A DNA stretch of 64,000 bases from an uncultured Candidatus Saccharibacteria bacterium (lineage in GTDB: Bacteria > Patescibacteriota > Minisyncoccia > Phycocordibacterales > UBA9973), in contig CAZGNC010000001.1 in NCBI GenBank assembly GCA_964527235.1, positions 83,220 to 147,219 of the forward strand, written 5' to 3'. Positions 2,213 to 40,900 of this stretch are shown piece by piece. The notes under the pieces were generated by a model that saw only the letters and a list, made by a program, of their open reading frames with translations, ran no database searches and was not told where the DNA came from. Numbering within the stretch: position 1 is the first letter of the stretch; each line of letters opens with the position of its first letter. Both the position numbers and the translations under genes were made by a program.

Positions 2213-3628
2213 ATGTCAGATAAAAAAGTTCGCAAAATAAAAAAGACAAAGAAGCCAGGAAAGAATTGGAGAAAATTTTGGAAACTTGGTGCGGATGAAT
2301 TTAACACTCAATTTCTAGGTGTGAACAAAGAAGGTGAGCTCACTGCTACCGAAGGCCATCACGTTTACAACCTCCACGACTTAGCACAGAAATACGGGAC
2401 ACCTCTTCAGGTGGTTTTCCCATTTCTTATTGAAGACCGACTGAAAGATCTGATCGGTTATTTCCAAGCGTATATGAAGATATACGGTTACAAGGGTAGA
2501 TTCTCTTATCATTACCCAATGAAAGTTAACCAGAACAAAGAATTTATTTTACCTATTCTCTCTGAGGGTGGAAATCTCGAAGTGACTTCTGCTAACGAGC
2601 TTTGGCTTGTGAAGAAACTCTGGGAAGGTGAGAAATTCAACAGCAAGATACGTGTGCTATGTAATGGTCCTAAGACTGATCAGTATATAGACCTGATCGA
2701 AGAGCTTCGCGGTAAGGGTATGAGCATCGTGCCTATCATTGAGGGCTACGAAGAGATAGAAAAATTTGTTAAGTATAAGGGTGATGTCGGCGTGCGCGTG
2801 GATTTAAATATTAAAGCTGACACTCATTGGGATAAAAAGTTCGACCGTTTCGGACTTTCTGAGAAAGACGTTTTGGATTTAGGTAAGATGAAGAATCTAA
2901 AAATTCTGCACTACCACCTAGGTTCACAGATTAAAACTCAGAAAAGTATTCTAGACGGTGTGAAGCACGCGTTTAGTATTTATGTGCAGGTTCAAAAGAC
3001 TAACCCATCTCTAGACACCCTAGATATCGGTGGTGGATTCGGCGTGCCTTACGAAAAGAAGAAATTCTATACTGCGAAAGGCGTTTCAAGTAAAATCATT
3101 AAAGTTCTTAAAAATCTTTCCGATAAAGCAGGCATCAGACACCCTAACTTAGCAGTTGAGTGGGGTCAATACATCGTAGCTCCTTCTCAGGTTACTCTCT
3201 ATAAAGTAATCTCAGAGAAAGCTATTCCGAAAGCTAATGCCAAGGCCTGGTATATAGTAGATGGTAGCTTCATGAATGACCTCAAGGATACTTGGGCGAT
3301 ACATCAGAAATGGCACACCATCCCAGCGAACAACATGGACGGTGCACTTAAGACCGTATGGCTTGCAGGTAGTACCTGTGACTCTGACGATAAATACACC
3401 GCCGGCGGTAACTATATCTTGCTTCCTAAGTTGCATGAGAATAAAGATCAATACGTCGCGCTTCTAGATACTGGTGCCTACCAAGATGCGCTAGCGTCTC
3501 ACCACTGTCTGCTTGCAGCACCGATGAAATTAATCGCTCAAGATGGTACTATTAAGATAGCTCGCAAGCGCGAGACACCTGAGTCTATCGGCAAACTCTT
3601 TGGCTGGACCAACGGGGATCATAAATAA
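2213..3628 (+). CDS. PLP-dependent fold-type III decarboxylase, biosynthetic arginine decarboxylase (SpeA)-like
   Basis: HYPMKVNQN (SpeA has YPIKVNQ) and DIGGGFGVPYE motifs of the Orn/DAP/Arg decarboxylase family. It is shorter than E. coli SpeA. Confidence 0.65.
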   Translation: MSDKKVRKIKKTKKPGKNWRKFWKLGADEFNTQFLGVNKEGELTATEGHHVYNLHDLAQKYGTPLQVVFPFLIEDRLKDLIGYFQAYMKIYGYKGRFSYHYPMKVNQNKEFILPILSEGGNLEVTSANELWLVKKLWEGEKFNSKIRVLCNGPKTDQYIDLIEELRGKGMSIVPIIEGYEEIEKFVKYKGDVGVRVDLNIKADTHWDKKFDRFGLSEKDVLDLGKMKNLKILHYHLGSQIKTQKSILDGVKHAFSIYVQVQKTNPSLDTLDIGGGFGVPYEKKKFYTAKGVSSKIIKVLKNLSDKAGIRHPNLAVEWGQYIVAPSQVTLYKVISEKAIPKANAKAWYIVDGSFMNDLKDTWAIHQKWHTIPANNMDGALKTVWLAGSTCDSDDKYTAGGNYILLPKLHENKDQYVALLDTGAYQDALASHHCLLAAPMKLIAQDGTIKIARKRETPESIGKLFGWTNGDHK

Positions 3629-3642
3629 TTTTCATTTTTAAA

Positions 3643-4116
3643 ATGAAGCAATCAATATTTTTTGTAATAATAGTTACTCTGTTTGCTGTTGTGAATTTTA
3701 TATGGGTGGAGAAGAAATATACTCCCGATACACCACCTCTAACTGTACAAGAAGCGAAAATAAAATATGCAGAGCTTGCTGGTAAAAAGATTAAAGTTGA
3801 TCTAGCTCAAAGCAAAGCCGAGCAGGAACTCGGTCTTTCGGGTAGATCTTCTTTAGCTCCCGATGAAGGACTGCTTTTTGTATTCGAAAATTCTGCCCAA
3901 CATCTTTTCTGGATGAAAGATATGAAGTTCGCTATTGATATTATCTGGATAGACGCAGATGGCAAGGTTGTATATATTAAAAAATCCGCAACCCCAGATT
4001 CTTACCCTGAAGTTTTCAAACCAACTTTAAATGCGAAATACGTTCTAGAAGTTTTAGCTGGATTTTCTGATAGTAATAATCTCAAAGAGGGGGATAGTGT
4101 CCTCTTTACATTCTAG
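3643..4116 (+). CDS. DUF192 (COG1430) family protein
   Basis: N-terminal TM segment; LGLSGRSSLAPDEGLLFVF...FWMKDMKFAIDIIWIDADGKVVYI matches the DUF192 signature. Confidence 0.8.
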   Translation: MKQSIFFVIIVTLFAVVNFIWVEKKYTPDTPPLTVQEAKIKYAELAGKKIKVDLAQSKAEQELGLSGRSSLAPDEGLLFVFENSAQHLFWMKDMKFAIDIIWIDADGKVVYIKKSATPDSYPEVFKPTLNAKYVLEVLAGFSDSNNLKEGDSVLFTF

Positions 4117-6581: not shown

Positions 6582-6595
6582 AAAAGAAAACAAAG

Positions 6596-6622
6596 AGGCC
6601 CCGTGCTTGCGCGCGGGGCCAT
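6596..6622. terminator. GC hairpin GGCCCCGTGC-ttgc-GCGCGGGGCC at the left boundary of the GC-rich island
   Basis: Perfect stem with a T-rich tract on the minus-strand side (TCTTTGTTTTCTTTTTT), so it terminates the minus-strand lipoprotein gene. It may also act on the Clp-like gene. Confidence 0.55.
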
Positions 6623-6672
6623 GAATGTCTCTCTTTGATGTCAGCCGAGAGACGATTGGCTGTTTGCTTCAA

Positions 6673-8298
6673 CTACGAACTTCCTTCAACCCTTCGCATC
6701 TCTGCGAGAAGGGTAGCTTCACCTCCGGGCTCGAGCGTAGCACGAGCTTCGCCGATGAGGTCGTTAGACCCCGGCTTGACGCATCGCGAGGTGTACTCGC
6801 CGGGCAACATCCCGCGGAGAGTGGTGGGGGTGGTGAAGATTCCCACGATCCCTCCGTTTGTCCGAACTTCGCACTGCATCTCGGGCAGGTTTGCCCGGAT
6901 GTTCAGTGTGCCGCCCATGATGCAGATCAGCTTGGCTGTCTTGCCGGCTTCCACAACAGCGCGTCCTTCGCCGATGATCTGGCCACCAGAGCCAGGCTTC
7001 ACGCATTTCCCGATGTATTCACCGGGTTGTCTGTTTGTGAGCGTGGTGTCGGTCAGCCACGCTCCAATGATGGTTCCGCCGAACGACACCTTCATCTCGA
7101 CGGGACCGTCGATGTTGTCGGTCAACACCAAGGTTCCCGTGGTTGGTGCCGGCGGTGGCGGCGGAGGTGGCGGAGCCACTTCCTTTTCCACATCGCAGTT
7201 CGACACCGTGCGTTGGTCGACGTTCACCGCGACGGGTGGAACCAGTCGCGACACGTATCCAGCGGGAGCCGTGTACGTGACCGAATAGAATCCAGCCTCG
7301 ACATTGATGCTGTCGGGCAGGGCGGGGAAGGACTTCAGCACAGACGAACTTCCAAGCTTCCGCACTTCAGCTTTCACGCCTGCAACTGTGCAGGTAGCGA
7401 GCAGCTTGCCCATGATTCTGGGCGGCGGCGGTGGAGCCGGCGGTTCCGGCTTGAGCGGGTTGTCACACACCGCGTTTGCTGAACCTCCTGCTGGCACCAC
7501 AGCGTAGGCCGTATCGGCCATACGCTTTCCTTCGGGGTCTTCGCATACAACCACGTAGCCTCCCGCCTTGACCTTGAGGTCGAAGTCGGTCGTTTGTGTG
7601 GTCAAGAGAGACCCGTAGAGCGCCGTGTATACCTTCGCGCGCATCCCTCTGGGTGAGGAATACACGTTGAGCACTCCGCTGTCCGACGCTATGGTCGGGA
7701 GCGGAGTGAGGTCGACGAGGAGCGTCTTCGTCGTTCGCGGATCTGGTGTCCATTCGGCCAGCCTGCTAGCATAGCCAGCGCGGCTGAGCGCGAAGATGTA
7801 CGATGACCCGTTACCGACGACGCTCGCCGTGTGAGGCGTCGTCGCATTTGTGAGCTTGGTCCAAGTGGTCGCACCGTTTGTGCGAGCCTGAGCCATGCTG
7901 TCTACCTTGGCCGTCATGCCGTCCTGTGTGCGGACGATGATGGTGGCCATGCTGTCGAGCGGCATCGTGGTCGACGGTTTGACCGTGACGCTGTCGGAGG
8001 CCTGGGTGTTTCCACCAGGGCCAGATGCGAACGCCCGGTATCGTACCGAACGCGACGGGTAGTCCGTCAACGTGTCGCACTTGGCGACAGTGAACCCTCC
8101 GGGTGACACCTGGATGGTGTTGAACCCAGTACCGCAGACTTCAATCTGCACCGGTTGCCCGGTCGTGATCGAGTCCTGCTTGATGTTGATCGTGACCGTT
8201 GGCGCTTCAGGCGCCGACGGTGGGGCTGTGATCTCTTCTACCGGATTGTTACATCCGGCGAGGATGACGAGCCCTACGATTGCAGCGAATCTTTTCAT
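6673..8298 (-). CDS. Secreted lipoprotein with PEGA-like domains, poly-Pro linkers and two C-terminal repeated beta domains (high-GC island)
   Basis: Start is placed at MKRFAAIVGLVILAGC (lipobox LAGC) with RBS GAGGAA 5 nt upstream. The track ORF extends a further 44 codons to 8430. PEPPAPPPPP and PPPPPPPPAP linkers. PEGA-like GFYSVTYTAPAGYVS. Duplicated ~60-aa C-terminal unit (PGEYIGKCVKPGSGGQIIGEGRAV / PGEYTSRCVKPGSNDLIGEARATL). About 60% GC. Confidence 0.7.
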   Translation of the reverse strand: MKRFAAIVGLVILAGCNNPVEEITAPPSAPEAPTVTINIKQDSITTGQPVQIEVCGTGFNTIQVSPGGFTVAKCDTLTDYPSRSVRYRAFASGPGGNTQASDSVTVKPSTTMPLDSMATIIVRTQDGMTAKVDSMAQARTNGATTWTKLTNATTPHTASVVGNGSSYIFALSRAGYASRLAEWTPDPRTTKTLLVDLTPLPTIASDSGVLNVYSSPRGMRAKVYTALYGSLLTTQTTDFDLKVKAGGYVVVCEDPEGKRMADTAYAVVPAGGSANAVCDNPLKPEPPAPPPPPRIMGKLLATCTVAGVKAEVRKLGSSSVLKSFPALPDSINVEAGFYSVTYTAPAGYVSRLVPPVAVNVDQRTVSNCDVEKEVAPPPPPPPPAPTTGTLVLTDNIDGPVEMKVSFGGTIIGAWLTDTTLTNRQPGEYIGKCVKPGSGGQIIGEGRAVVEAGKTAKLICIMGGTLNIRANLPEMQCEVRTNGGIVGIFTTPTTLRGMLPGEYTSRCVKPGSNDLIGEARATLEPGGEATLLAEMRRVEGSS

Positions 8299-8329
8299 GT
8301 GTTCCTCATCGGGGGTTCTTGTGTGGGAG

Positions 8330-9391
8330 CTACTTGCGTTCGCTTGGTGTCCATCGGAGCATGGCCCCGAGTCTCCATCCGATTCCTTTTGTGGGGTTGT
8401 TGGGTGTCTTAGCAAGAGTGTTCTGGCCATAGGTAATGTCTAGGTTCCAGATCGCTCTCGTATCCTTGGCGATCTGTAGTCCTGCGTCCAGACCTAGGCG
8501 ACCATAGTTGTTCTGCTGAACCCAGTTTCCGTTTACTCCCTCCGTGCCGGAGGTGCATGTAATCTCATCATGTCCACCGCCGGCGGTCAAGCCGAATGGG
8601 CCAGAGATGTCTCTCCTGATTCCAAGGTCGAACGATTTGTTCGCTTGGCTGCAGGTTCGACTTTGTCCTCTGGGCGAGTATCCAACCCGCCCTGTGAGTT
8701 CGAACGGGACGACGCGGGCCTTAGCAAAGAATCCCACACCAAATGTGAATGTCGAAAGGCGTTTTCTGCCTCCCGAAATCCCGTATCCGGGGCCGACAGC
8801 GAGGTCGATCCAGGACTCGTTCTTCTTCGCCTCTTCCTTCTTACCGCTGTCGGCGTTCGAGTTGTCGATCATCTTCTGGACCACCCCGGCGATTTGCGCC
8901 GTGGTGTCCTTCAGCGCACTGATGTCCTTCTTGGCCGACTGCATGTCGGTATTGAGCGTGTCGACTGCCTTGGTGACAGTCGCCAACGAGTCGTTCGGCG
9001 GTGCCGAGGCGACTGGGCAATCGAGGGAGATCATCACACCACGGTACTGCGGACCGCGTTGTGGTACTGCAATTCCCTTGGCATGAATTCGTCCGAGTTC
9101 GATCTTCTCGATCTCGTTCAGGATTCTTGTTACGTTACCTGCGCGGCGATCCGCGAGGTCTTGGTTCTGCTCCTTGTTGTTGGTTTTGTAGGGGGTTCCG
9201 TCTGCGAACCCCGTGACGTTGATATGGCACGAAGTGCCCGCGGCAATCGCAATCTCTTTCAATGCCAGACGGGTCTCGTCCTTACCAAGTGTGTACCCCA
9301 TGAAGGGGTATACGGTCGCCTTCGTTTCCTGCGCCTTGAGGGCGAAGGGGAAGATGGCGACCATGAGGATGGTCAGAATGAAGCGAAACAC
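8330..9391 (-). CDS. OmpA-domain protein with inverted architecture: N-terminal OmpA-like peptidoglycan-binding domain, coiled coil, C-terminal beta-rich (barrel-like) domain (high-GC island)
   Basis: GTG start with RBS AGGAG-acaaa-GTG. The track ORF is longer, with an upstream ATG. Signal peptide FRFILTILMVAIFPFALKAQE. OmpA-like motif INVTGFADGTPYK...NQDLADRRAGNVTRILNE. Coiled coil, then alternating-hydrophobic segments ending ...GWRLGAMLRWTPSERK. Confidence 0.65.
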   Translation of the reverse strand: MFRFILTILMVAIFPFALKAQETKATVYPFMGYTLGKDETRLALKEIAIAAGTSCHINVTGFADGTPYKTNNKEQNQDLADRRAGNVTRILNEIEKIELGRIHAKGIAVPQRGPQYRGVMISLDCPVASAPPNDSLATVTKAVDTLNTDMQSAKKDISALKDTTAQIAGVVQKMIDNSNADSGKKEEAKKNESWIDLAVGPGYGISGGRKRLSTFTFGVGFFAKARVVPFELTGRVGYSPRGQSRTCSQANKSFDLGIRRDISGPFGLTAGGGHDEITCTSGTEGVNGNWVQQNNYGRLGLDAGLQIAKDTRAIWNLDITYGQNTLAKTPNNPTKGIGWRLGAMLRWTPSERK

Positions 9392-9691
9392 TTTGTCTCC
9401 TGCGTTGTTGGTTGTGTGACTATTCTTCGGCTTCCCGGTAAGCGTTTGTGTTATTCTATAGCTTTTTTCGTAGTTGAAGTTGTCAAGGTACTGTGATGCC
9501 GGGGGATCCGGCCCACAGAGATTGTTCTCATAAAGACGGATTCCGACTACTGACCTATTACTAGCATAAAAAGTGCATTTTGTCAATGCCTAGCTTGACG
9601 TTTTTGGATTTTATGAAAAAGACAAAGCCGGGTAGCGTGGTGTTCGCTATCCCGGCTCGGATGTCCTCGTTGATGTCCCCTGAGGAAGGGG

Positions 9692-10210
9692 TTACCGCCA
9701 GGTGCGAATCATCACACCTGTGTGCAGACCAAGTGCCTGCTCTCCGTGGTTATTTCTTGTCCAGGCGAGGCCTGGGGCAAGGATGATGCCGAGCTTCTTG
9801 ACGTGCAATGTGTATGCTGGGCCAAGAATCAGGCCCATCTCGCGTTCTCGCTCATCGCGACAATTGTTTGCCTCTATGAGGGCACCTGCTGTGGCGCCCC
9901 ATGGACCACGAATCTCACGATGAATTGAGGCGACCAGAGCGCTCGAGCGTTCAGTGCAGTGATCCCGGGCATTTGCCCAGAATCCTCCCTCTACTTCGAT
10001 GTCGGTCCGATGGTCGATTCGTACGATGCCGATGACGGTCGGTTTGGTGCTCGATCTGCCGTTTGAACGCAGGTCGGACACTCCCGCGCCGAAGTTCAGG
10101 CGCGGGGACGGATTGTGTACGGTCTGGTGCGAGCTGTCTGCGGGTGAGTGTTGCGCATGAGAATTAGTAGCCCATGCGAGAATCGCAAGAAAAGAAATAA
10201 TTATACGCAC
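9692..10210 (-). CDS. Small outer-membrane beta-barrel (OMP_b-brl/porin-family-like) protein with signal peptide (high-GC island)
   Basis: GTG start with RBS GGAG-aatctc-GTG. Signal peptide MRIIISFLAILAWATNSHAQ. The ~150-aa mature part has amphipathic beta-strand periodicity. Confidence 0.5.
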   Translation of the reverse strand: MRIIISFLAILAWATNSHAQHSPADSSHQTVHNPSPRLNFGAGVSDLRSNGRSSTKPTVIGIVRIDHRTDIEVEGGFWANARDHCTERSSALVASIHREIRGPWGATAGALIEANNCRDEREREMGLILGPAYTLHVKKLGIILAPGLAWTRNNHGEQALGLHTGVMIRTWR

Positions 10211-10329
10211 GAGATTCTCCGCCCGGACGGTAATGTAATGTACAAAAATCGTCGGGATTTCCGGCGATCAATATATTTTTATCACAAACTTGCGCACTTG
10301 TCGATTTTAAAAATTTCTAGTTTATGTAT

Positions 10330-10357
10330 TTGACTTTATTTTTATAAATGTTAGAGT
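10330..10357 (+). promoter_or_regulatory. Promoter TTGACT-16 nt-TAGAGT for the micro-gene
   Basis: TTGACT at 10330-10335 and TAGAGT at 10352-10357. The perfect SD AAGGAGGTGA at 10376-10385 follows. Confidence 0.45.
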
Positions 10358-10389
10358 TTTTATTCCTCTAGATATAAGGAGGTGATTGC

Positions 10390-10452
10390 ATGTTCAGTTT
10401 CGCCGATTTCGTGAACGCCGTCTTCGAAGGGTGGAAGCCGCTGAAGAAGTAG
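10390..10452 (+). CDS. 20-aa micro-protein MFSFADFVNAVFEGWKPLKK with a perfect Shine-Dalgarno site
   Basis: AAGGAGGTGA-ttgc-ATG. Followed by a perfect 13-bp inverted repeat (10466-10492) and an intrinsic terminator. Confidence 0.45.
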   Translation: MFSFADFVNAVFEGWKPLKK

Positions 10453-10530
10453 CGTCACCGTCGAGCCTCTCGGCACACAGTGTGCCGAGAGGCCAGCAAT
10501 CAAGAGCTTGTTAAGCTCTGCAGTATTTAA

Positions 10531-10570
10531 GGACCCTGCTCGCCACCGCGCGACAGGGTCCTGCTTTTTT
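10531..10570 (+). terminator. Intrinsic terminator GGACCCTG..CAGGGTCC followed by TTTTTTG
   Basis: 8-bp GC stem and a T6 run, after the micro-gene and its inverted repeat. Confidence 0.6.
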
Positions 10571-10797
10571 GTCTTAATGTGCAGGAATCTCAGTACAAAT
10601 TTTTTCTTATTTTTCTTCAGGACTCGGTCACGAGTTACTAAGTATTTTATTTCATTACATTTATAAAATACAAAGTACTCGCGACCCCGCCTCGACCACG
10701 ACCTTCGGTCGGCTTCGCGGTCTCCGGCTTTCTCGTCCTGTACAATCTCGCAAAATGTAAAACCCCATTGCTTTCGCAATAGGGCTATAACATTTTG

Positions 10798-10870
10798 TGG
10801 ACCGTACAGGACTCGAACCTGCCACCCCCTCATTGCAAATGAGGTGCTCTACCAGATGAGCTAACGGCCC
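10798..10870 (-). tRNA. tRNA-Ala (anticodon UGC)
   Basis: Reverse complement GGGCCGUUAGCUCAUCUGGUAGAGCACCUCAUUUGCAAUGAGGGGGUGGCAGGUUCGAGUCCUGUACGGUCCA. Cloverleaf with G3:U70 in the acceptor stem, the Ala identity element. Anticodon loop UUUGCAA. The 3' end faces the GC-rich island, and a terminator-like hairpin lies at 10763-10784. Confidence 0.9.
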
Positions 10871-10985: not shown

Positions 10986-11058
10986 TCCGGGGTAGCTCAG
11001 CGGTAGAGCGGTCGCCTGTTAAGCGATTGGTCGTAGGTTCGATCCCTACCCCCGGAGC
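10986..11058 (+). tRNA. tRNA-Asn (anticodon GUU)
   Basis: UCCGGGGUAGCUCAGCGGUAGAGCGGUCGCCUGUUAAGCGAUUGGUCGUAGGUUCGAUCCCUACCCCCGGAG. Anticodon loop CUGUUAA; acceptor, D, anticodon and T stems all pair. Confidence 0.85.
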
Positions 11059-11084
11059 TCGTTTTTTGGGATAATCTAAATTAT

Positions 11085-11519
11085 ATGAAGCCATGTGCGT
11101 ACTGTACTAAACCAGAAGCGAAGGAAAGAACTATTATAAAAAATGATTTAGCTTTTGCTTTTCCAACTTATATTCCGATAACTCCAGGGCATACTTTGAT
11201 TTGTCCTATTCGTTGTGTGGCAAAATTTAGCGAATTGTCCAAAGAAGAATTATCAGCAATCTTTGAGCTACAAAATAAACTTAATATCGCACTATCCAAA
11301 GCGTTCGGGGCAGAGGGTTTTAACTATGCTTGGAACGAAGGAGAAATAGGTGGTCAAGATGTGCCACATTTTCATTTACATATGGTGCCAAGAAAGTCAG
11401 GAGATGCTGGTATATATGGGTATGATCCTAGGAAATTTCTTTATCGACCTGGCTCTCGCGAGAAAACCCCTGAAGATGAATTAAAGCACGTTGTTTCTTT
11501 TATCCAGAGTTTTCTTTAA
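11085..11519 (+). CDS. HIT-family (histidine triad) hydrolase
   Basis: HIT motif DVPHFHLHMVPR. Confidence 0.85.
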   Translation: MKPCAYCTKPEAKERTIIKNDLAFAFPTYIPITPGHTLICPIRCVAKFSELSKEELSAIFELQNKLNIALSKAFGAEGFNYAWNEGEIGGQDVPHFHLHMVPRKSGDAGIYGYDPRKFLYRPGSREKTPEDELKHVVSFIQSFL

Positions 11520-11726
11520 TTCAGAAATTGCTAAGATAATTTTGCGAGTTGGTGCCCAGCCCGAGTTTTGCGACGGCAAAGTGAGAGGCGCGGGAGATAT
11601 CCCTACCCTTGATGCAGACTTGACGAAAATTTTTTAATGTGCAAAATAAAAATTGGTTATCACTCTATTTGCGTTGGTTTTTATACGCAGATAGGTTCCT
11701 TATAAAACAACGCAGACAACGCGGAG

Positions 11727-12152
11727 ATGGAACAAATGGACTCACTGCATCTGGCTGGGAACTTGGGTTGGCAAATACTTCTGGCGGTCATTACGCCGGT
11801 TGTGGTTTCTGTCTTCGTGATTGTGAAAGTATTTATGCCCAACGTGAACCGTGAGGAAGAGAGGGCTGTGTCAGTATCCCTGGCACAGCGCGTGGCGTCT
11901 TCTAGCCACGGCGTCAGGAAAGTCGAGCCCAACAAAGGTGCAACTCGTCTCCATTTGTTTCCTCGTGACGGAAAGATGGAGGATTGCGTCCTCTGGTTCT
12001 TCTCCGGTCACCCTGATTTCAAGGAGGTGTCTCGAATTCCTGAGGACATCATGTTCACAGTGGAATTTGTGTTCACCGAGGTCCCCGTCAAAGGGCAAGC
12101 TCAGGAAGCTACGGGGTATCTTCGGTTAAAGAAGATGCCTCTGGTGTTGTAG
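11727..12152 (+). CDS. Hypothetical membrane-anchored protein, GC-rich, SD-driven (foreign-looking)
   Basis: N-terminal TM segment GWQILLAVITPVVVSVFVIVKVF. GGAG upstream of ATG. About 52% GC against an AT-rich background. An intrinsic terminator follows at 12161-12203. Confidence 0.45.
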   Translation: MEQMDSLHLAGNLGWQILLAVITPVVVSVFVIVKVFMPNVNREEERAVSVSLAQRVASSSHGVRKVEPNKGATRLHLFPRDGKMEDCVLWFFSGHPDFKEVSRIPEDIMFTVEFVFTEVPVKGQAQEATGYLRLKKMPLVL

Positions 12153-12160
12153 TTTGGTAT

Positions 12161-12203
12161 TCGCCCGACAGGTCGCCCGACCTCTCGGGCGATTCTGTTT
12201 TTG
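12161..12203 (+). terminator. Intrinsic terminator TCGCCCGA-cctc-TCGGGCGA followed by TTCTGTTTTTG
   Basis: Perfect 8-bp stem plus a T-run. Confidence 0.6.
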
Positions 12204-12428
12204 TATACAATTTTATTTTAATATAGCCATTCGAACATCCTCCCAAGTTTGGAGCATGTGAAAATCTTAAATCCACGCAAGTGGGCTTTTGATTTTTTAG
12301 ACGAGGGGAGAAAGCCAACCATTTGGCTTTCTTGTAGGGATCGAGAAGTTCACTCATGTTTTTTTTCACAAGAAGTTAATTGAATAAAATTAACATTCCT
12401 CTAAAAATTGATAAAATAGGGCTATTGT

Positions 12429-13013
12429 ATGAATAACGATGATATAAAACTAGTTGCACTGGCTAAGGAAAACCCGAAGGAATATGAGAAACTATACACT
12501 AAATATTCTGATAAGGTTTTCAACTATTTCTGGTATCGCACTGGACATGACAAGATGCTATCAGAAGATCTTATGCAAGAAACATTTTTGCGAGGGTTTC
12601 AGTATTTAGGCCGATTTAATAATCGAGGATACTCATACCTGACATATTTGATAACCATTGCTCACAATGTACTAGTTGACCACTATCGCAAGCCACAATC
12701 AGTGCCTTTTGAAGCTATTGATGATATCCCATACGAGGTTACAGAAGATATTGAAAATAAATCAGATGCCGAAGCGCTTTGGCGAGCCATCCAAGATTTG
12801 CCATCCCCAAATAGGGACAAGCTCCTCATGTATTATCAGCAGGATATGTCAATTAAGGATATTGCCACTGCTACCAACACTACGGAAAATGCGGTAAAGC
12901 TTTCGCTTTCTCGAACCAGGAAGAAACTCAAAGATCATCCGTACATCAAGGATATTCGTGGATTTGCAGATAAGAAACGCGAGCAGACCCACGCACAGTT
13001 TTTGGATAAGTAG
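12429..13013 (+). CDS. RNA polymerase sigma factor, sigma-70/ECF-like family
   Basis: Region 2 LMQETFLRGFQYLGRFN...YLTYLITIAHNVLVDHYRK. Region 4 HTH DMSIKDIATATNTTENAVKLSLSRTRKKL. Confidence 0.8.
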   Translation: MNNDDIKLVALAKENPKEYEKLYTKYSDKVFNYFWYRTGHDKMLSEDLMQETFLRGFQYLGRFNNRGYSYLTYLITIAHNVLVDHYRKPQSVPFEAIDDIPYEVTEDIENKSDAEALWRAIQDLPSPNRDKLLMYYQQDMSIKDIATATNTTENAVKLSLSRTRKKLKDHPYIKDIRGFADKKREQTHAQFLDK

Positions 13014-13309
13014 ACACCTTTTTTGGTTAAATACGTTTAATATTTTGACAGTGAGGTGGTCACTCACTGTGGTATAGAAAAAATCAATGATACTTAAGTC
13101 AAATAATGTGAATTCAAAACAAAAAGTGGCTCAAGGGATTCATTCTTTAAATTTCTGATGCCACATACCTCCACACAACTAAATAGTGCCAGTATAAAAG
13201 ATTGCATAAGCAAGCAAGAGAAGGCATATAGCTTTCTGGTGTACCACCAATCCCCCTTGTGATAGATCGACGTCAAGGGCATTAATAGAATCTAATCTTC
13301 AACATACCT

Positions 13310-13807
13310 ATGAATACAGCAATTAAAAAAGTAGACAATAATTCTCTTCAAAGACGAGATGAGTTTTTGGGTCCGTTCTCTTTAGTTGATAGATTCTTTG
13401 ATGATGCGCTCGATTCGTTCTCTATGATGTCGCCAAACCTGTTCCGTCATAGGACGCTAGGTAACGTCAGCACGCTGTTCCCCAAGGTAGATGTTGAGGA
13501 AACAGAGAATGAGATAAAGGTGACAGCCAATATTCCAGGAATCGACGCGGAAAATATAAATGTCGAGGTTGGAGATGATTATCTGTCGCTTTCCGGAAAA
13601 ATTGAGAAAGAGGATAAGTCTAGAGACAGGCAAGGCAAAGTGTATCGCTATGAACGTGAGTTCGGTGAGTTCCGCAGAGAGTTTGCACTCCCTGCGAGAG
13701 TAGATAAGGATGGAATAATTGCCAGGTCTAAAAATGGTGTACTCTCCATCATATTGCCCAAGTCTGAAGAAGAGAAGAAGAAAAAGGTTAAGGTAGAAGT
13801 TGAGTAA
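13310..13807 (+). CDS. Hsp20/alpha-crystallin family small heat-shock protein
   Basis: ACD core VDVEETENEIKVTANIPGIDAENINVEV...LSLSGKIE...FGEFRREFALP...NGVLSIILPK. Terminator at 13826-13858. Confidence 0.9.
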   Translation: MNTAIKKVDNNSLQRRDEFLGPFSLVDRFFDDALDSFSMMSPNLFRHRTLGNVSTLFPKVDVEETENEIKVTANIPGIDAENINVEVGDDYLSLSGKIEKEDKSRDRQGKVYRYEREFGEFRREFALPARVDKDGIIARSKNGVLSIILPKSEEEKKKKVKVEVE

Positions 13808-13825
13808 GTGAAAGAAATATTAAAC

Positions 13826-13858
13826 AAAAACCCGCTTATGAGCGGGTTTTTGTTTTGG
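13826..13858 (+). terminator. Intrinsic terminator AAAAACCCGCT-tatg-AGCGGGTTTTTGTTTTGG
   Basis: Stem plus a long T-run after hsp20. Confidence 0.7.
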
Positions 13859-13928
13859 TTTTTACCGAAGTAAATTTACTATCTATGTTTAGCTCGAAAA
13901 TTTAGATAACTTCTGGTATTATTTACTT

Positions 13929-14309
13929 ATGAAAACAAATAGTAACAAATACGTAGATGGGTTTGTGATACCAATAAAAAAGAAGGATGTAGAAGCTTAT
14001 AAAAAGATGGCGATAGCGGGTGCAAAGATGTGGAAAAAATACGGTGCCTTGGAGTATTTTGAATGCATAGCAGATGACATAGAAGTTAAAAAAGATATGC
14101 CACAAAAAGGCTTCGGCAAACTCGCAGGTCTTAAGCCCGATGAGACTGTTGTGTTTTCTTGGATAGTTTATAAATCCAAAGCTCATAGAGACCAAGTAAA
14201 TAAGAAAGTAATGAGTGACCCAAGCATGAATGATTTCGATCCTGCCACCATGCCAATCAACATGAAGCGTTTCGCTTCTGGAGGCTTTAAGCCGATAGTT
14301 GAATTCTAA
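13929..14309 (+). CDS. DUF1428 (YbaA-like) family protein
   Basis: KYVDGFVIPI..., FSWIVYKSKAHRDQVNKKVMSDP and GGFKPIVEF align with E. coli YbaA. Confidence 0.85.
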   Translation: MKTNSNKYVDGFVIPIKKKDVEAYKKMAIAGAKMWKKYGALEYFECIADDIEVKKDMPQKGFGKLAGLKPDETVVFSWIVYKSKAHRDQVNKKVMSDPSMNDFDPATMPINMKRFASGGFKPIVEF

Positions 14310-14384
14310 ATATTTAAATTGCTAAGATAATTTCCTGAGTATATAATTAAACAATTATATATAAGGTTTATTTTCTACAAGTAC

Positions 14385-16555: not shown

Positions 16556-16675
16556 ATGGCAAAAAGAAGCACAACACTAAGTCCTAAGAAAAAGTCTCGC
16601 CGATCTCACAAGACCAAGAAGCGTCTCGAAGTAAAGCGACAGATGCTAGCTAAGAAAGCAGGGAAGAGAAAATAA
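16556..16675 (+). CDS. 39-aa extremely basic protein MAKRSTTLSPKKKSRRSHKTKKRLEVKRQMLAKKAGKRK (ribosomal-protein-like or nucleic-acid-binding)
   Basis: Not in the track because it is under 60 aa. It is an intact ORF followed by a bidirectional terminator at 16702-16735. The composition is Lys/Arg-rich, like small r-proteins (bL35-like KKATKRK tail). Confidence 0.4.
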   Translation: MAKRSTTLSPKKKSRRSHKTKKRLEVKRQMLAKKAGKRK

Positions 16676-16701
16676 ATAATAGTTCTGCCTAAAAAGTGCG
16701 A

Positions 16702-16735
16702 ACCCCCGACCGTGTGCAACGGTGCGGGGGTTTTG
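16702..16735. terminator. Bidirectional hairpin ACCCCCG...CGGGGGT with T-runs on both strands
   Basis: Serves the 39-aa basic gene (+) and the 36-aa GC-rich peptide gene (-). Confidence 0.5.
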
Positions 16736-16753
16736 GGCGCCTGGGGGTGTTTT

Positions 16754-16864
16754 CTAGAACATCCCCAGGGCGCGATCGATGCTGTCGGTGCCGATGGCGT
16801 CGAGCACGGCGCCGGCGGCGAGGGTTGCGGTAAAGATGAGGAAGTCGGCAATCTTACGACGCAT
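16754..16864 (-). CDS. 36-aa GC-rich peptide MRRKIADFLIFTATLAAGAVLDAIGTDSIDRALGMF with SD (foreign-looking)
   Basis: RBS GGAGA-cccgcc-ATG. Lies in a ~200-bp stretch of >60% GC. Hydrophobic core. Confidence 0.35.
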   Translation of the reverse strand: MRRKIADFLIFTATLAAGAVLDAIGTDSIDRALGMF

Positions 16865-17035
16865 GGCGGGTCTCCGGGTTGTGCCTAGCAAAGCTAGGCG
16901 GTGATTTGTGCAACTGAGTACATTATAGCACGTTTTATGCTCAAAAGTCAATAGGCAAAACACCTTATATTGACTGTGTTTTGTAGTGTTTTTAGGCGAT
17001 TTAACATAAAGCCATATTTGTGATACAATGTAGGT

Positions 17036-17719
17036 ATGGAAACAAAAGATAAACTAAAGGAATATGGCGTTTTTTGGGTAGCTTTGGCATTACTAGTATT
17101 TGCATTAATATTTTTCGTGTCAGCTAGAGGATTCTCTGCGCAAGGAAAATTCGTAGAAGTTAAAGGTCTTTCAGAGAGAATCGTTAAAGCTGATGTGGCT
17201 ATCTGGTCTATCAACTTTGAAGTTAAGTCTAACAACATTGATACTCTTTCTCTCGATATCGAAAAGAATATTTCCGGAATAAAATCTTTCCTAACAGAGA
17301 AAGGATTTGAAGCTTCTGAGATAAATATCGCTCCAGTAAATATTTATCAGGATACTTATCGTGATGCACTATTCCGATACAATGCGAACGTGCAAATGTC
17401 TGTATATACCAAGAAAGTTGACCTAGTGAAGTCTGCTTCAGGAGAGACTCTGTCTTTGGTTAAAAAGGGCGTAACTATGAATCAAAACATGGTAACCTTC
17501 GAATTCTCTGACCTAAATAGCATCAAGCCCGAAATGTTACAAGAAGCTATCAAGAATGCGAGAGTTTCAGCTACACAGTTTGCCAAGGATTCTGGTTCAG
17601 CCCTAGGTGGCGTGTCTCGCGCGAATCAGGGAGTTTTCGATATTACTGAGAAAGACCCAGGTTCTCCTGAGTACAAGAAAATCCGCGTAGTTTCAAGTTT
17701 GAGATTCTTATTAAAGTAG
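17036..17719 (+). CDS. SIMPL/DUF541-family protein with N-terminal TM anchor
   Basis: TM anchor FWVALALLVFALIFFV. C-terminal ...AIKNARVSATQFAKDSGSALGGVSRANQGVF resembles the SIMPL domain. Extended -10 TGATACAAT lies 6 nt before the ATG. Confidence 0.55.
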   Translation: METKDKLKEYGVFWVALALLVFALIFFVSARGFSAQGKFVEVKGLSERIVKADVAIWSINFEVKSNNIDTLSLDIEKNISGIKSFLTEKGFEASEINIAPVNIYQDTYRDALFRYNANVQMSVYTKKVDLVKSASGETLSLVKKGVTMNQNMVTFEFSDLNSIKPEMLQEAIKNARVSATQFAKDSGSALGGVSRANQGVFDITEKDPGSPEYKKIRVVSSLRFLLK

Positions 17720-20701: not shown

Positions 20702-20758
20702 TGCTTGACTTAGGCTGTGAGTATTTTAAGATAATATTGAATATACACCGGAGCGTGT

Positions 20759-20923
20759 ATGAGTGCATTCGATAAGGGGCAGCGCGGTGATGAGACCATC
20801 AAGACCGAGCTCCCAACGTTTCGTCTGAAGCCAAGCCCAATTCCGCACTTGGCTACTCCAGAGGATAACGGAGAGTGCAGGAGGCCGTTGCCTCCTGCGA
20901 CGCAGGGGAAAGACCCTCAGTGA
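20759..20923 (+). CDS. Possible 54-aa hydrophilic ORF in a GC-rich intergenic module (alternatively an ncRNA)
   Basis: GGAG-cgtgt-ATG. ~58% GC patch (20740-20990) between AT-rich genes. Weak terminator-like hairpin at 20946-20975. No homology recognised. Confidence 0.2.
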   Translation: MSAFDKGQRGDETIKTELPTFRLKPSPIPHLATPEDNGECRRPLPPATQGKDPQ

Positions 20924-21014
20924 TCATACATGGGGGCAGGTAAAGGGGGCCGATTGCAGCACAGCGCAGTCGGTCCTTTGTACTTTAATGCCCCAAATAT
21001 GATATAATGTAATT

Positions 21015-37926: not shown

Positions 37927-40900
37927 ATGAAATTAAGTAACAAAAAATTGAGCGGGAAAAAGGGTCCTAGAATGCTTTTCGGCGTTCAGGTTTTTTTCAT
38001 AACTTTTGCTCTAATTTTAAATTTATTTTTCACAAGTTTTGCTAACGCTACTGCTGGCGTTCCTCTAGTCATAAATTTTCAAGGACGATTGATGGATAAT
38101 GCGGGTGATCTTTTGGGTGGACCTTCTGGAACAGACTATTGTTATAAATTTTCTATTTATGACGCTACCACTGGAGGATCTAAAATTTGGCCGACAGGTT
38201 CTCCTTCGACTATGACCATCGTAACTCGTGAAGGAGTCTTCGATGCAAGTATCGGAGATACTGGTGCTGGAGGCGATGCGTTGGATTTAGCTTTCACTGA
38301 CGACCAGGCATATGTAAATGTTGAAGTTGCAGCTAAGGTGGGTGGCTCATGTACTACAGGTGGTGATGAAGTTTTCGAAACTCTATCACCTCGTCCGAGA
38401 ATTGTTTCTTCGGCTTTCGCTATAAATTCTAAAACTGTTGGAGGATTCACTCCAGCGCAATCCGCAACCAACAACCAGATTCCAGTTCTAACTTCTGGTT
38501 CACTTATACTTAGTCACGCAACTACTGCTGGTATAACCTCGTCAGGCGCAAACCCTCTTGCAGTAGATGCCGGTGCTTCTGGGGTATTAAATATTAACGG
38601 AACTTCAACAGGAGACATTCTAATCGGTGGAGGTTCTGGTTCTACTGGTTGTACGATTACTAACTCCTCTGGAGCATTTGCTTGTTCTGCTGGTATCTCG
38701 GGTACTACTGGCACTTTCTCAGGAGCCATCGCTGCTAACGGAGGCATCACATTCGACGCATCTACCGACACCATCGGAGCATTCACTGCAGCAGGGACGA
38801 TCGACATGAATGCAAACATCATTACCAACATCGGTAATGCTGGCACAGACTTCACAGCAACAGGAGGCTTAACATTAGACGACATACTCACAGTTAATGA
38901 CGACCTTACTGTTGCACTTTCAGGAAATGAGAACGTAGAGATTACTGATGGAGCTACTCCAACAACAGACATATTAAGCATCATAGCTGATGGAGCTTCA
39001 ATCACTAATGATGCTAACGCTTTAGAAATTGACTTTACCACAGGTGACGGAGCTAACGTAACTCAATCAGGATTACAGATTGATCTAGCTTCTGGAGGTA
39101 CTGCTTCTGGAGATACCATCTACGGTATCCATTTAACCATGGATGCAGCCGATGCTTCAACCCAAGACGCAATTTTCGTAAATGGTAACTTCGATACTAT
39201 CCTCGGTGGTACGACTGCTGGCACTTCAATATTCGACTTCACCAACTTCGATGTTACTTCTGCGGGAGCTATTTCTGGACTTAGTTTAGATCTTACAAGT
39301 GCAACACAAGCGACGATTAACCTAACTGATAGTGGTGACACATCTGGTCTTGGTATTATTAACTTTAAAGGAGGAGCTACTACAAGATTTCAAATACTTG
39401 GTAGAAACGATGTAACTACCGGCAATACTTTAACTTTCACCGATGGAACCAATGAACTTGTAAGAATTACCGACAATGGTCGTGTGGGTATCGGATCAAC
39501 TGACCCTGAAGACCTCCTCGAAGTTCAAGGAGCCGAAGCCACAGATTCAGTGTTAGTACTTGATGCTGACGATGGTGATGATGCTGCTGACACATGGTTT
39601 GTAAAATCTGTTGCTACAAGTAACTCTCTTTCAATACTAAATGATGTCACAGAAAGATTCGCTTTAACTTCTGCAGGGAATCTTCAGTTTGATGGAACAC
39701 TTACCTCAGGCTCCGGCAACACCGTCCTCACTCTCTCTACCGGTATGATTGATGCAGATGCACTTACTCTAACAACAGCCGCAGACGGAGGTACAGGTAC
39801 TTCTTCAGGCTCAGGACTTATTGTAAGAAGTGATGGTATAGGATTACTACAAGGTTGTACTGATGGACAAGTGCTGGCATGGGTAGAGTCTACTGATACT
39901 TGGGATTGTGCGACAGCGAGTGGAGGAGTATCTGACGGAGACAAGGGAGATGTAACAGTTTCGGGTTCTGGGGCAACCTGGACTGTGGACTATACTTCTT
40001 CTGATGGAGTAGGTGGCACCTCAACATCTGGGGGGCTCGAACAAGGCACAGGAGGCATAGGATTATTACAGGGTTGTGCTGATAATGAAATTTTGAAATG
40101 GAATGATGGCACTTCTGTCTGGGCGTGTGCTACTGACGCTACATCTGCTGGTGCTGGAGTTTCTACAATTCAAGAAGGAGATAGCACCATAGAAGGTTCA
40201 GCTTCGACTATAGATTTCTTAGCTGCTGATTTTACAGTTACAAGTTCTCCAGCCGGTGAAGCGAACATAGTAATTGATTACACAAACTCAGGAATAACTC
40301 GAAACAGCCAGAACGAAGCAATAACTGGTGACTGGGGCTTTACTTTAGGAGCGGGAGAGGCTATAGATTTTGTTGCTGGGGCTGCGCCAACTGTAGACAT
40401 GGTAGAAATTGGAAATACTGGTCAAGGGACCACTACTACTGGCGTTGATGGATTAGAAATAAATTTCGTAACAGCAGCGGTGGCTGGTTCAGTAGAGAAC
40501 TCTGCTTTAGAGATTATCCTTGATCCTTCAGGAGCCACAGAAGCAGGAGATCAAGTTAATGCTGTTGACATAGCCAACATAACCAATCCAACAGGGCTAA
40601 CTACAGGAGTGAGAGTTGGTAGTGGGTACGATGTCGGTATCGCTTTCAGGGATTCTGCTGGAGATTATGTAGGATTTAAAGCTCCTGCAGATGTAACAAC
40701 AACTACGACTTGGACACTACCAGCTGCGGATGCTGCGGGATGTTTTAAATCTGATGGCTCTGGAAACATGTCTATAAGTTCTTGCGGTGATACTAAGGTT
40801 CAGGTCTATGATTCCAACACTACTTATACAGTTCCCGCTGATGCTCAGATGATAATAATTGAAGCTATCGGTGGAGGAGGATCTGGAGGTGGTGGTGCGC

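Follow-up and report, generated by a model that had tools for sequence, protein, structure and literature searches.

Three short GC-rich patches in a 64,000 nt stretch of contig CAZGNC010000001.1 (the window, with positions counted from its first nucleotide) are best read as three independent, unrelated single-gene islets of foreign DNA, which would have entered intergenic spacers of a Candidatus Nomurabacteria genome at separate times. We put the probability of this reading at roughly 0.65. Patch 1 lies at 11.7-12.2 kb and carries a gene for a 138-aa protein, patch 2 (16690-16900) a gene for a 36-aa peptide, and patch 3 (20740-20990) a gene for a 54-aa protein. All three open reading frames (ORFs) are real protein-coding genes, and a comparison with the compact gene order of related genomes shows all three patches to be inserted. 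Their GC content at third codon positions (GC3, 0.61-0.84) and their starts led by a Shine-Dalgarno (SD) sequence differ from every native gene in the window, as the native genes are SD-less and often leaderless. The islets are a new, small-scale example of the known horizontal gene flow into genomes of the candidate phyla radiation (CPR), which is an ordinary process.

The window is bacterial: ARAGORN and Rfam identified two tRNAs and an RNase P RNA of class A. Its GC content is about 41%, and by its genes it falls in Candidatus Nomurabacteria/Paceibacterota (Patescibacteria, CPR). Approximately 80 related loci, all from metagenome-assembled genomes of this group, were collected with the SIMPL-domain gene at 17036-17719 as the search query. 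The sister species is represented by locus L005 (CAZUID010000006.1), which is 82% identical to the window over 13.5 kb of collinear sequence, and L087 is a strain of the same species as L005, 99.6% identical to it. An earlier note on this DNA had singled out the three patches as GC outliers, and values for 200-bp segments confirmed this (z=2.1-4.0) against a background of 0.405 (standard deviation 0.056) in segments outside a large GC-rich island at 6582-10797. Patch 2 has a GC content of 0.63 (z=4.0), and its peak of 0.645 is the highest single window outside the island. The values for patch 3 are 0.558 (z=2.7, top 1.3%, peak 0.58) and for patch 1, taken as 11727-12200, 0.523 (z=2.1, top 2.7%, peak 0.55); the peaks of these two rank just below a GC block at 41 kb. 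Codon usage agreed, with GC3 values of 0.61, 0.84 and 0.62 for the ORFs of patches 1, 2 and 3, against 0.26-0.43 for host genes; the patch values equal the range of the large-island genes. The 41-kb block (41087-41842, 58% GC) was rejected as a fourth patch. It is the Gly/Ala/Ser-rich low-complexity part, with a Gly-rich repeat, of a 1937-aa putative surface protein (37927-43740), and since the amino-acid composition accounts for its GC content it is not foreign DNA.

That the patches are insertions was determined from the gene order of the relatives. The spacer between the SIMPL-domain gene and g39, a small gene next to patch 2, consists of 0-92 AT-rich nt in 23 relatives, and is 360-372 nt long only in the window and L005. 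At patch 3, at least 11 relatives have about 20-115 nt between a VTT-domain gene and HPF, while the window and L005 carry a hydrolase gene and patch 3 between the two. The presence and absence of the patches among relatives followed the same lines, with patches 2 and 3 shared by the window with the sister species alone, and patch 1 absent from both L005 and L087. The earlier note had set against its own proposal the case of patches conserved at the same loci across the lineage with lineage-typical codon usage. Half of this is seen, in that patches 2 and 3 are kept at their loci in one sister species only; they are not lineage-wide, and their codon usage is not lineage-typical. Four separate sequencing runs, as assembled in Logan, also contain the patches at 100% identity and in the same context, and a different species, from other studies, has orthologues of them. 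An assembly chimera or artefact was rejected on these grounds.

The translation starts set the patches apart as well. None of the 52 host-like genes in the window has GGAG or GAGG at Shine-Dalgarno distance, and in approximately 35% of them a -10 box precedes the ATG by 6-8 nt, as in leaderless genes. None of the loci fetched for comparison contains the 3' end of a 16S rRNA, where an anti-SD would lie. The ORFs of patches 1, 2 and 3 begin with GGAGA-N8-ATG, GGAGA-N6-ATG and GGAG-N5-ATG, respectively, and the only other real SD-led gene start in the 64 kb is that of a lipoprotein gene in the large island. Each patch is a complete unit of promoter, SD, ORF and hairpin terminator (Table 1), with promoters called by a consensus scan and scored as matches out of 12; the SD-like signal and terminator claimed for each patch were thus found in three of three. 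The relatives hold other, unrelated GC-rich SD-led protein genes. In L093, an SD-poor genome of the leaderless type (38-41% GC) that has a homologue of the 138-aa gene, GC-rich genes with a GC3 of 0.61-0.67, one with an SD, are interspersed at 3141-4100, 7224-8018 and 8595-8936, so the GC-rich mosaic is not peculiar to the window.

Table 1. Positions of the features of the three patches and of the tRNA-Asn hotspot in the window
Feature	Position	Strand	Basis or remark
tRNA-Asn(GUU), anchor of the variable hotspot	10986..11058	+	ARAGORN, Rfam
66-nt GC-rich attR-like element	11544..11609	.	89% identical to L005 920-985
Patch 1, weak promoter-like site TTGACG-16-CAAAAT	11620..11647	+	9/12 consensus matches; putative
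Patch 1, SD GGAGA	11723..11727	+	read from sequence; 8 nt ahead of ATG 11736
Patch 1, 138-aa gene	11736..12152	+	141 aa if started at ATG 11727
Patch 1, intrinsic terminator of the 138-aa gene	12161..12204 (hairpin at 12171-12194)	+	15-nt inverted repeat, 93% complementary, then T run
Patch 2, bidirectional terminator hairpin of the converging g39 (+) and 36-aa gene (-)	16701..16732	.	inverted repeat, strong fold
Patch 2, 36-aa hydrophobic peptide gene, MRRKIADFLIFTATLAAGAVLDAIGTDSIDRALGMF (MRRKIADF...)	16754..16864	-	L005 orthologue, dN/dS
Patch 2, SD GGAGA, 6 nt ahead of ATG	16871..16875	-	invariant in L005
Patch 2, 5' untranslated region (UTR) hairpin of the 36-aa mRNA	16882..16900	-	GCCTAGC/GCTAGGC vs L005 GCTTGGC/GCCAAGC
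Patch 2, promoter TTGACT-18-TATAAT, extended TG	16922..16951	-	11/12, best match in 10.5 kb; 100% conserved in L005
Patch 3, promoter TTGACT-16-TAAGAT	20705..20732	+	consensus scan; surrounding 40 nt invariant in L005
Patch 3, SD GGAG, 5 nt ahead of ATG	20750..20753	+	invariant in L005
Patch 3, 54-aa gene for hydrophilic proline-rich protein, MSAFDKGQRGDETIKTELPTFRLKPSPIPHLATPEDNGECRRPLPPATQGKDPQ	20759..20923	+	orthologues, dN/dS
Patch 3, terminator hairpin	20945..20988	+	strong hairpin and T-rich tail

The site of patch 1, downstream of tRNA-Asn, is a hypervariable hotspot whose content differs in all three genomes compared. The last part of the 66-nt element in this region is a decayed copy of the 3' end of tRNA-Asn (ATCCCTACCC, 11599-11608). 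In L005, where the element closes with an exact repeat of the 3' 17 nt of the tRNA-Asn, 179 nt downstream of it, the maximum in 300 shuffles was 11 nt. The interval from this attR-type scar to the conserved gene o263 is about 100 nt in L087, about 0.9 kb in L005 and about 2.7 kb in the window, where it includes the 138-aa gene; this gene is in neither L005 nor L087. The L005 interval contains a GC-rich mini-module of its own, with GGAGAG-N7-ATG, a 16-aa hydrophobic ORF and a terminator (L005 1741-1915). Within the species the segment is itself variable: comparison of L005 1025-1921 with L087 44-60 showed that some 0.9 kb, with a 194-aa ORF, the GC-rich module encoding the 16-aa product MWAWLLAVASGYNVWA and its strong terminator, is absent from L087. 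No ORF longer than 194 aa was found in 11059-14384 of the window, and a Pfam scan of two ORFs there gave HIT and sigma-70 domains only. Like islands integrated next to tRNA genes by tyrosine integrases, patch 1 lies downstream of a tRNA, behind an element with a putative copy of the tRNA 3' end, and in content that varies between strains and species. It differs from them in lacking an integrase and, within the window, an intact att pair. The 138-aa gene is located outside the interval from tRNA to repeat; the remnant is that of a decayed hotspot and not of an intact element.

The 66-nt element is separate from the 141-aa ORF described in the earlier note. That note had drawn a patch at 11540-12200 with a membrane-anchored ORF and a terminator; the ORF, its helix and its terminator stand, but the start at 11540 does not, as it takes in the 66-nt element. 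A hairpin within the element (11566-11584, GTTTTGC-GACG-GCAAAGT) is kept at L005 942-960 with other stem bases (AATGAGC-GACG-GCGAATT), and because the element is more conserved (89%) than its flanks it may be a functional RNA or DNA structure. The tRNA-Asn of L005 (157-757) has an intron of about 557 nt after the anticodon region, a group I intron by its Rfam match (RF00028, 60.7 bits, L005 486-750) that holds an HNH-type endonuclease-like ORF; the tRNA-Asn of the window is intron-free.

Three-base periodicity is strong in the 141-aa ORF (0.60/0.35/0.61) and confined to the open frame. The second ATG, at 11736, is more likely the start, and the resulting length of 138 aa agrees with that of the cluster representative (P0002). 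A word-indexed protein search returned nothing beyond the protein's own cluster, and the ORF was taken for an orphan until an exhaustive HMMER search recovered 11 full-length homologues, 117-141 aa long, with E values of 1e-11 to 9e-5. The family has a hydrophobic helix at the N-terminus, followed by the shared motifs FPK.DR.KER..S.ELA.RI, HPDF, F.FQE.P and QDATAYLRLK. An AlphaFold model made with the family alignment reached a predicted local distance difference test (pLDDT) score of 87.8, a single-sequence run being uninformative (pLDDT 47.7). The predicted fold is an N-terminal transmembrane helix and a five-stranded, OB-fold-like closed beta-barrel that superposes on OB folds. None of the 12 family members matched Pfam or NCBIfam, including the DUF2500 and BOF profiles, and PADLOC, PHROGs and PDB sequence searches gave no sequence-family match for the 138-aa protein. 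The protein belongs to an undescribed family of predicted membrane-tethered OB-fold proteins. DUF2500/YhhM (PDB 3q6c) and BOF/YgiW, small OB-fold proteins of bacteria that are secreted or anchored in the membrane, have the same layout, with one N-terminal hydrophobic helix and a five-stranded OB-like barrel of about 90 residues, and 3q6c was among the Foldseek matches of the model, with a TM score of 0.60 normalised to the target. The excess of Lys and Arg directly after the helix suggests, by the positive-inside rule, that the barrel faces the cytoplasm.

In patch 2, the 36-aa peptide MRRKIADF... with a GGAGA SD was borne out. Its orthologue in L005 has 37 aa (MRQKVTNALIFSLTLILGAVIDAIGTDSTFDIALGMF), with an in-frame 3-nt indel and a dN/dS of 0.34. 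The terminator shared with g39 is almost invariant in L005, with a 2-nt deletion in the loop, and the 5' UTR hairpin shows two compensatory pair changes between the two sequences. The transcript folds better than 200 of 200 shuffles (z -3.7), and the gene would be expected to be strongly transcribed, as read from its promoter sequence. The GC3 of the gene has stayed at 0.83-0.87 in both sequences, with mRNA structure as a candidate cause. The peptide has a charged N-terminus, a hydrophobic core at residues 8-21 and a mean hydropathy of +0.74. Since conservation is concentrated in the C-terminal half (16/19 identical residues, against 8/17 in the N-terminal half), the peptide is likely membrane-inserted or signal-peptide-like, with the conserved C-terminal 13-14 residues as the likely functional part. 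The neighbouring g39 (16556-16675, + strand) encodes an extremely basic 39-aa protein (MAKRSTTLSPKKKSRRSHKTKKRLEVKRQMLAKKAGKRK) with 59-97% identity (mostly 70-97%) in approximately 45 Nomurabacteria loci, where its gene in most cases immediately precedes the SIMPL gene. The protein matches no NCBIfam model, and may be an unrecognised ribosome- or nucleic-acid-associated small protein.

Patch 3 had been described as a possible 54-aa ORF or non-coding RNA (ncRNA) at 20740-20990. The ORF was upheld and the ncRNA was not: the patch has no Rfam match at E<=1, and the orthologue, a protein of 52 aa (P0008) present in four strain contigs besides L005, has a 3-nt indel that keeps the frame and gives a dN/dS of 0.07 at a dS of about 2. 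Neighbouring genes have a dS of roughly 0.5-1.7 in most cases between the window and L005, near saturation. The product is a small, hydrophilic and probably disordered protein. The 54-aa transcript also folds better than 200 of 200 shuffles (z -5.7). A long-range 5'-3' pairing that would mask the start codon was considered and dropped, as its 3' partner is deleted in L005. At the terminator site L005 has a different sequence, also with a GC hairpin, followed by TGTTTTT, so the function is kept though the letters are not.

Loss of GC after import was assessed against a neutral expectation derived from synonymous third-position changes in 16 host genes, window versus L005, which gave P(S->W)=0.40 and P(S->other S)=0.03. 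In the 54-aa gene GC-to-AT differences were neutral, with 10 against 9.7 expected and 9 against 9.3. This neutral loss in both lineages implies an ancestral GC3 of up to 0.87, and a decay as expected for an import.

For patch 1 there is a hint of a donor. The placed copies of the 138-aa family lie in SD-poor genomes with a -10 box at the ATG and a GC content of 38-56%, and each of these genomes has GGAGGAA 5-7 nt before the ATG of the gene, including L095, where the GC3 of the gene is 0.28. The window copy (GC 0.52, GC3 0.61) resembles the copy in the 56%-GC genome L094 (0.52, 0.64), where such composition is host-typical. As the family sits in such genomes, always with its own SD, the likeliest donor on sequence grounds is another, higher-GC, putatively Patescibacteria-like genome. 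This fits published work on Patescibacteria, in which single-gene transfers and islands are common and the donors are mostly other Patescibacteria (PMC12455944, mSystems 2025). The patches share with the transferred genes and islands described there an atypical composition, a setting in streamlined CPR genomes and a patchy distribution. They are smaller than the usual islands, with 0.2-0.7 kb and one small ORF each, below the detection of island-prediction tools, and for two of them, coding for 36 and 54 aa, no homologue was found beyond two species.

Searches for homologues of the two small proteins were negative throughout. A word-indexed protein search with the 54-aa protein and the extended 36-aa frame gave none outside the two sister species, scans of metagenomes with peptide patterns gave no homologues, and neither did viral contigs. 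Two metagenome matches to the core GAV[LI]DAIGTD were dismissed as chance, as they lie inside long ORFs of contigs with 60-70% GC. The only match in plasmid and phage collections, to a Caballeronia replicon (55 nt, 82%, E=1e-4), was taken as a GC-rich chance similarity. Pfam, NCBIfam, PADLOC, PHROGs and PDB sequence searches yielded nothing for the patch proteins.

The three patches are unrelated to each other. When 198 GC-rich patches taken from the 80 related loci were compared all-against-all by blastn, the three matched only their L005 orthologues, and tblastn of the three peptides linked them only to those orthologues, with no similarity among the patches. Terminal inverted or direct repeats were limited to chance repeats of 8-9 nt that are not kept in L005. 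ARAGORN and Rfam gave no match to the patches, at gathering score or at E<=1; many intergenic GC patches of the relatives are RNase P RNA, tRNAs or group I introns. The earlier note had suggested either repeated small acquisitions from a GC-rich source or a family of mobile small-gene cassettes. The repeated acquisitions, though not a single source for them, are supported by the interrupted junctions, the composition, the SDs, the hotspot and the amelioration of the 54-aa gene. The cassette family failed, since the patches share no DNA or protein sequence, have no credible terminal repeats, match no Rfam family and have no mobility gene.

On the reading that we prefer, each islet would have been kept as a self-contained unit of sigma-70-type promoter, SD-bearing 5' UTR, small ORF and intrinsic terminator. 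Patches 2 and 3 would have entered before the split from the sister species, and the loss of GC from the 54-aa gene since then would have followed the neutral rate of the host. Patch 1 may have entered later, or may have been lost from the sister species; its route would have been the hypervariable hotspot downstream of tRNA-Asn with its decayed attR-type repeat. For patches 2 and 3, which have no repeats, illegitimate recombination of taken-up DNA seems most likely.

Several observations weigh against three foreign islets. For the 36-aa and 54-aa genes, searches of the protein database, of the metagenome, viral, plasmid and phage collections and of the family libraries turned up neither a donor nor a homologue beyond the two sister species, so their foreign origin is argued from composition, signals and phyletic pattern. 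None of the patches is accompanied by an integrase or another gene for mobility, and the att-like repeat of the window has no more than 10 nt, a length reached by 5% of shuffles and marginal by itself. The SD of the 138-aa family is kept even in L095, where the composition of the gene is host-like; as the SD is intrinsic to this family, an SD alone is no mark of foreignness. In the 36-aa gene GC-to-AT changes fall short of expectation, with 3 where 8.1 were expected (P=0.015) and 2 where 7.7 were (P=0.005), and G<->C swaps exceed it, with 5 where 0.6 were expected (P=2.5e-4). Because its third positions turn over and yet stay G or C, its GC content is under selection, at least in part, and is therefore no clean evidence of origin.

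The same observations lead to the alternative that the patches are native, lineage-specific genes, born de novo or evolving fast, whose GC content and SDs are kept by selection, for example for structured SD-dependent mRNAs. The active retention of GC3 in the 36-aa gene, the folding of both small transcripts beyond all 200 shuffles (z -3.7 and -5.7), the two compensatory changes in the 5' UTR hairpin, the SD of the 138-aa family that persists whatever the host composition, and the lack of a donor for the 36-aa and 54-aa genes all fit. We nevertheless regard this as unlikely, since the loss of GC in the 54-aa gene matches the host's neutral rate exactly, other genomes hold homologues of the 138-aa gene while the sister species lacks it, and all three genes lie at junctions that are compact in relatives. 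De novo birth would also leave intergenic DNA of 55-64% GC in a 40% GC genome unexplained, and the conservation of RNA structure is seen for the terminator and the UTR hairpin in a comparison of two species. A rather improbable proposal is that the patches, as inserted mini-genes that over long evolutionary times keep GC-rich mRNAs with a 5' UTR and an SD in a genome of SD-less, largely leaderless native genes, represent a distinct translational class in Patescibacteria, of SD-dependent, structure-gated small proteins, with the GC content of the 36-aa gene selected against AT-biased drift. If this were true, SD-dependent small proteins would be translated unlike leaderless housekeeping mRNAs, perhaps under particular conditions, and the 36-aa product could be a secreted peptide of 13-14 residues made with a signal peptide, or a membrane effector, in an episymbiotic lifestyle.

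Patch 2 by itself resembles a type I toxin-antitoxin locus, in which the 36-aa peptide would be a membrane-damaging toxin translated from a structured mRNA under antisense RNA control. It shares with Hok, TisB, Fst and Ldr a short hydrophobic peptide (below 60 aa, with a charged N-terminus and a hydrophobic core), a very strong promoter match, a 5' UTR structured by a conserved hairpin that directly precedes the SD, and an mRNA with extensive folding, and it is a lineage-restricted inserted locus. An antisense partner is not apparent, however: a consensus scan, which is a weak test, gave no promoter-like site on the + strand within 16690-16920, and the converging g39 transcript would be halted by the shared terminator before it overlaps the ORF. 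The peptide matches no toxin family in Pfam, NCBIfam or PADLOC, has an Asp within its hydrophobic stretch, and is best conserved in a polar C-terminal tail, unlike typical type I toxins. We consider such a locus improbable. Copies of one mobile cassette family, similar to miniature inverted-repeat transposable elements or to integron cassettes, would account for the recurring SD, small ORF and hairpin, and for further modules in the sister species such as L005 1741-1915. This is already largely refuted and must be rated very improbable, as apart from orthologues the patches resemble neither each other nor the 198 GC-rich patches of the 80 loci, no terminal inverted or direct repeat is conserved in L005, and the hairpins are ordinary terminators, not attC-like, with no integrase or transposase nearby. 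Structured ncRNA genes or assembly chimeras are hardly credible. The patches are GC-rich and fold strongly, and intergenic GC patches in relatives are often RNA genes, but there is no Rfam match even at E<=1, coding signatures are clear in all three, and the same sequence was recovered in four independent run assemblies, with orthologues in another species.

The large GC-rich island (57-61% GC) adjoins the 3' end of tRNA-Ala (10797-10870, - strand). It has no integrase, and att repeats there do not exceed 9 nt. It encodes the SD-led lipoprotein (start MKRFAAIVGLVILAGC), an OmpA-like protein of 418 aa and a beta-barrel-like protein of 172 aa, products of outer-membrane type that are unexpected in a CPR cell.

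Read as three foreign islets, the patches do not overturn the current understanding of CPR genomes. They would mean that gene flow into these streamlined genomes reaches down to single ORFs of 36-138 aa, which are missed by island predictors and by many gene callers, and that single-gene islets can persist under purifying selection across speciation. A by-product is the undescribed family of predicted membrane-tethered OB-fold proteins, always with its own SD in otherwise SD-poor genomes. The constraint of synonymous sites in the 36-aa gene to G or C hints at a function at the RNA level. In the window, real SD-led starts are confined to inserted genes rich in GC, which brings up the question of how the two modes of initiation, SD-led and leaderless, operate side by side in these cells.

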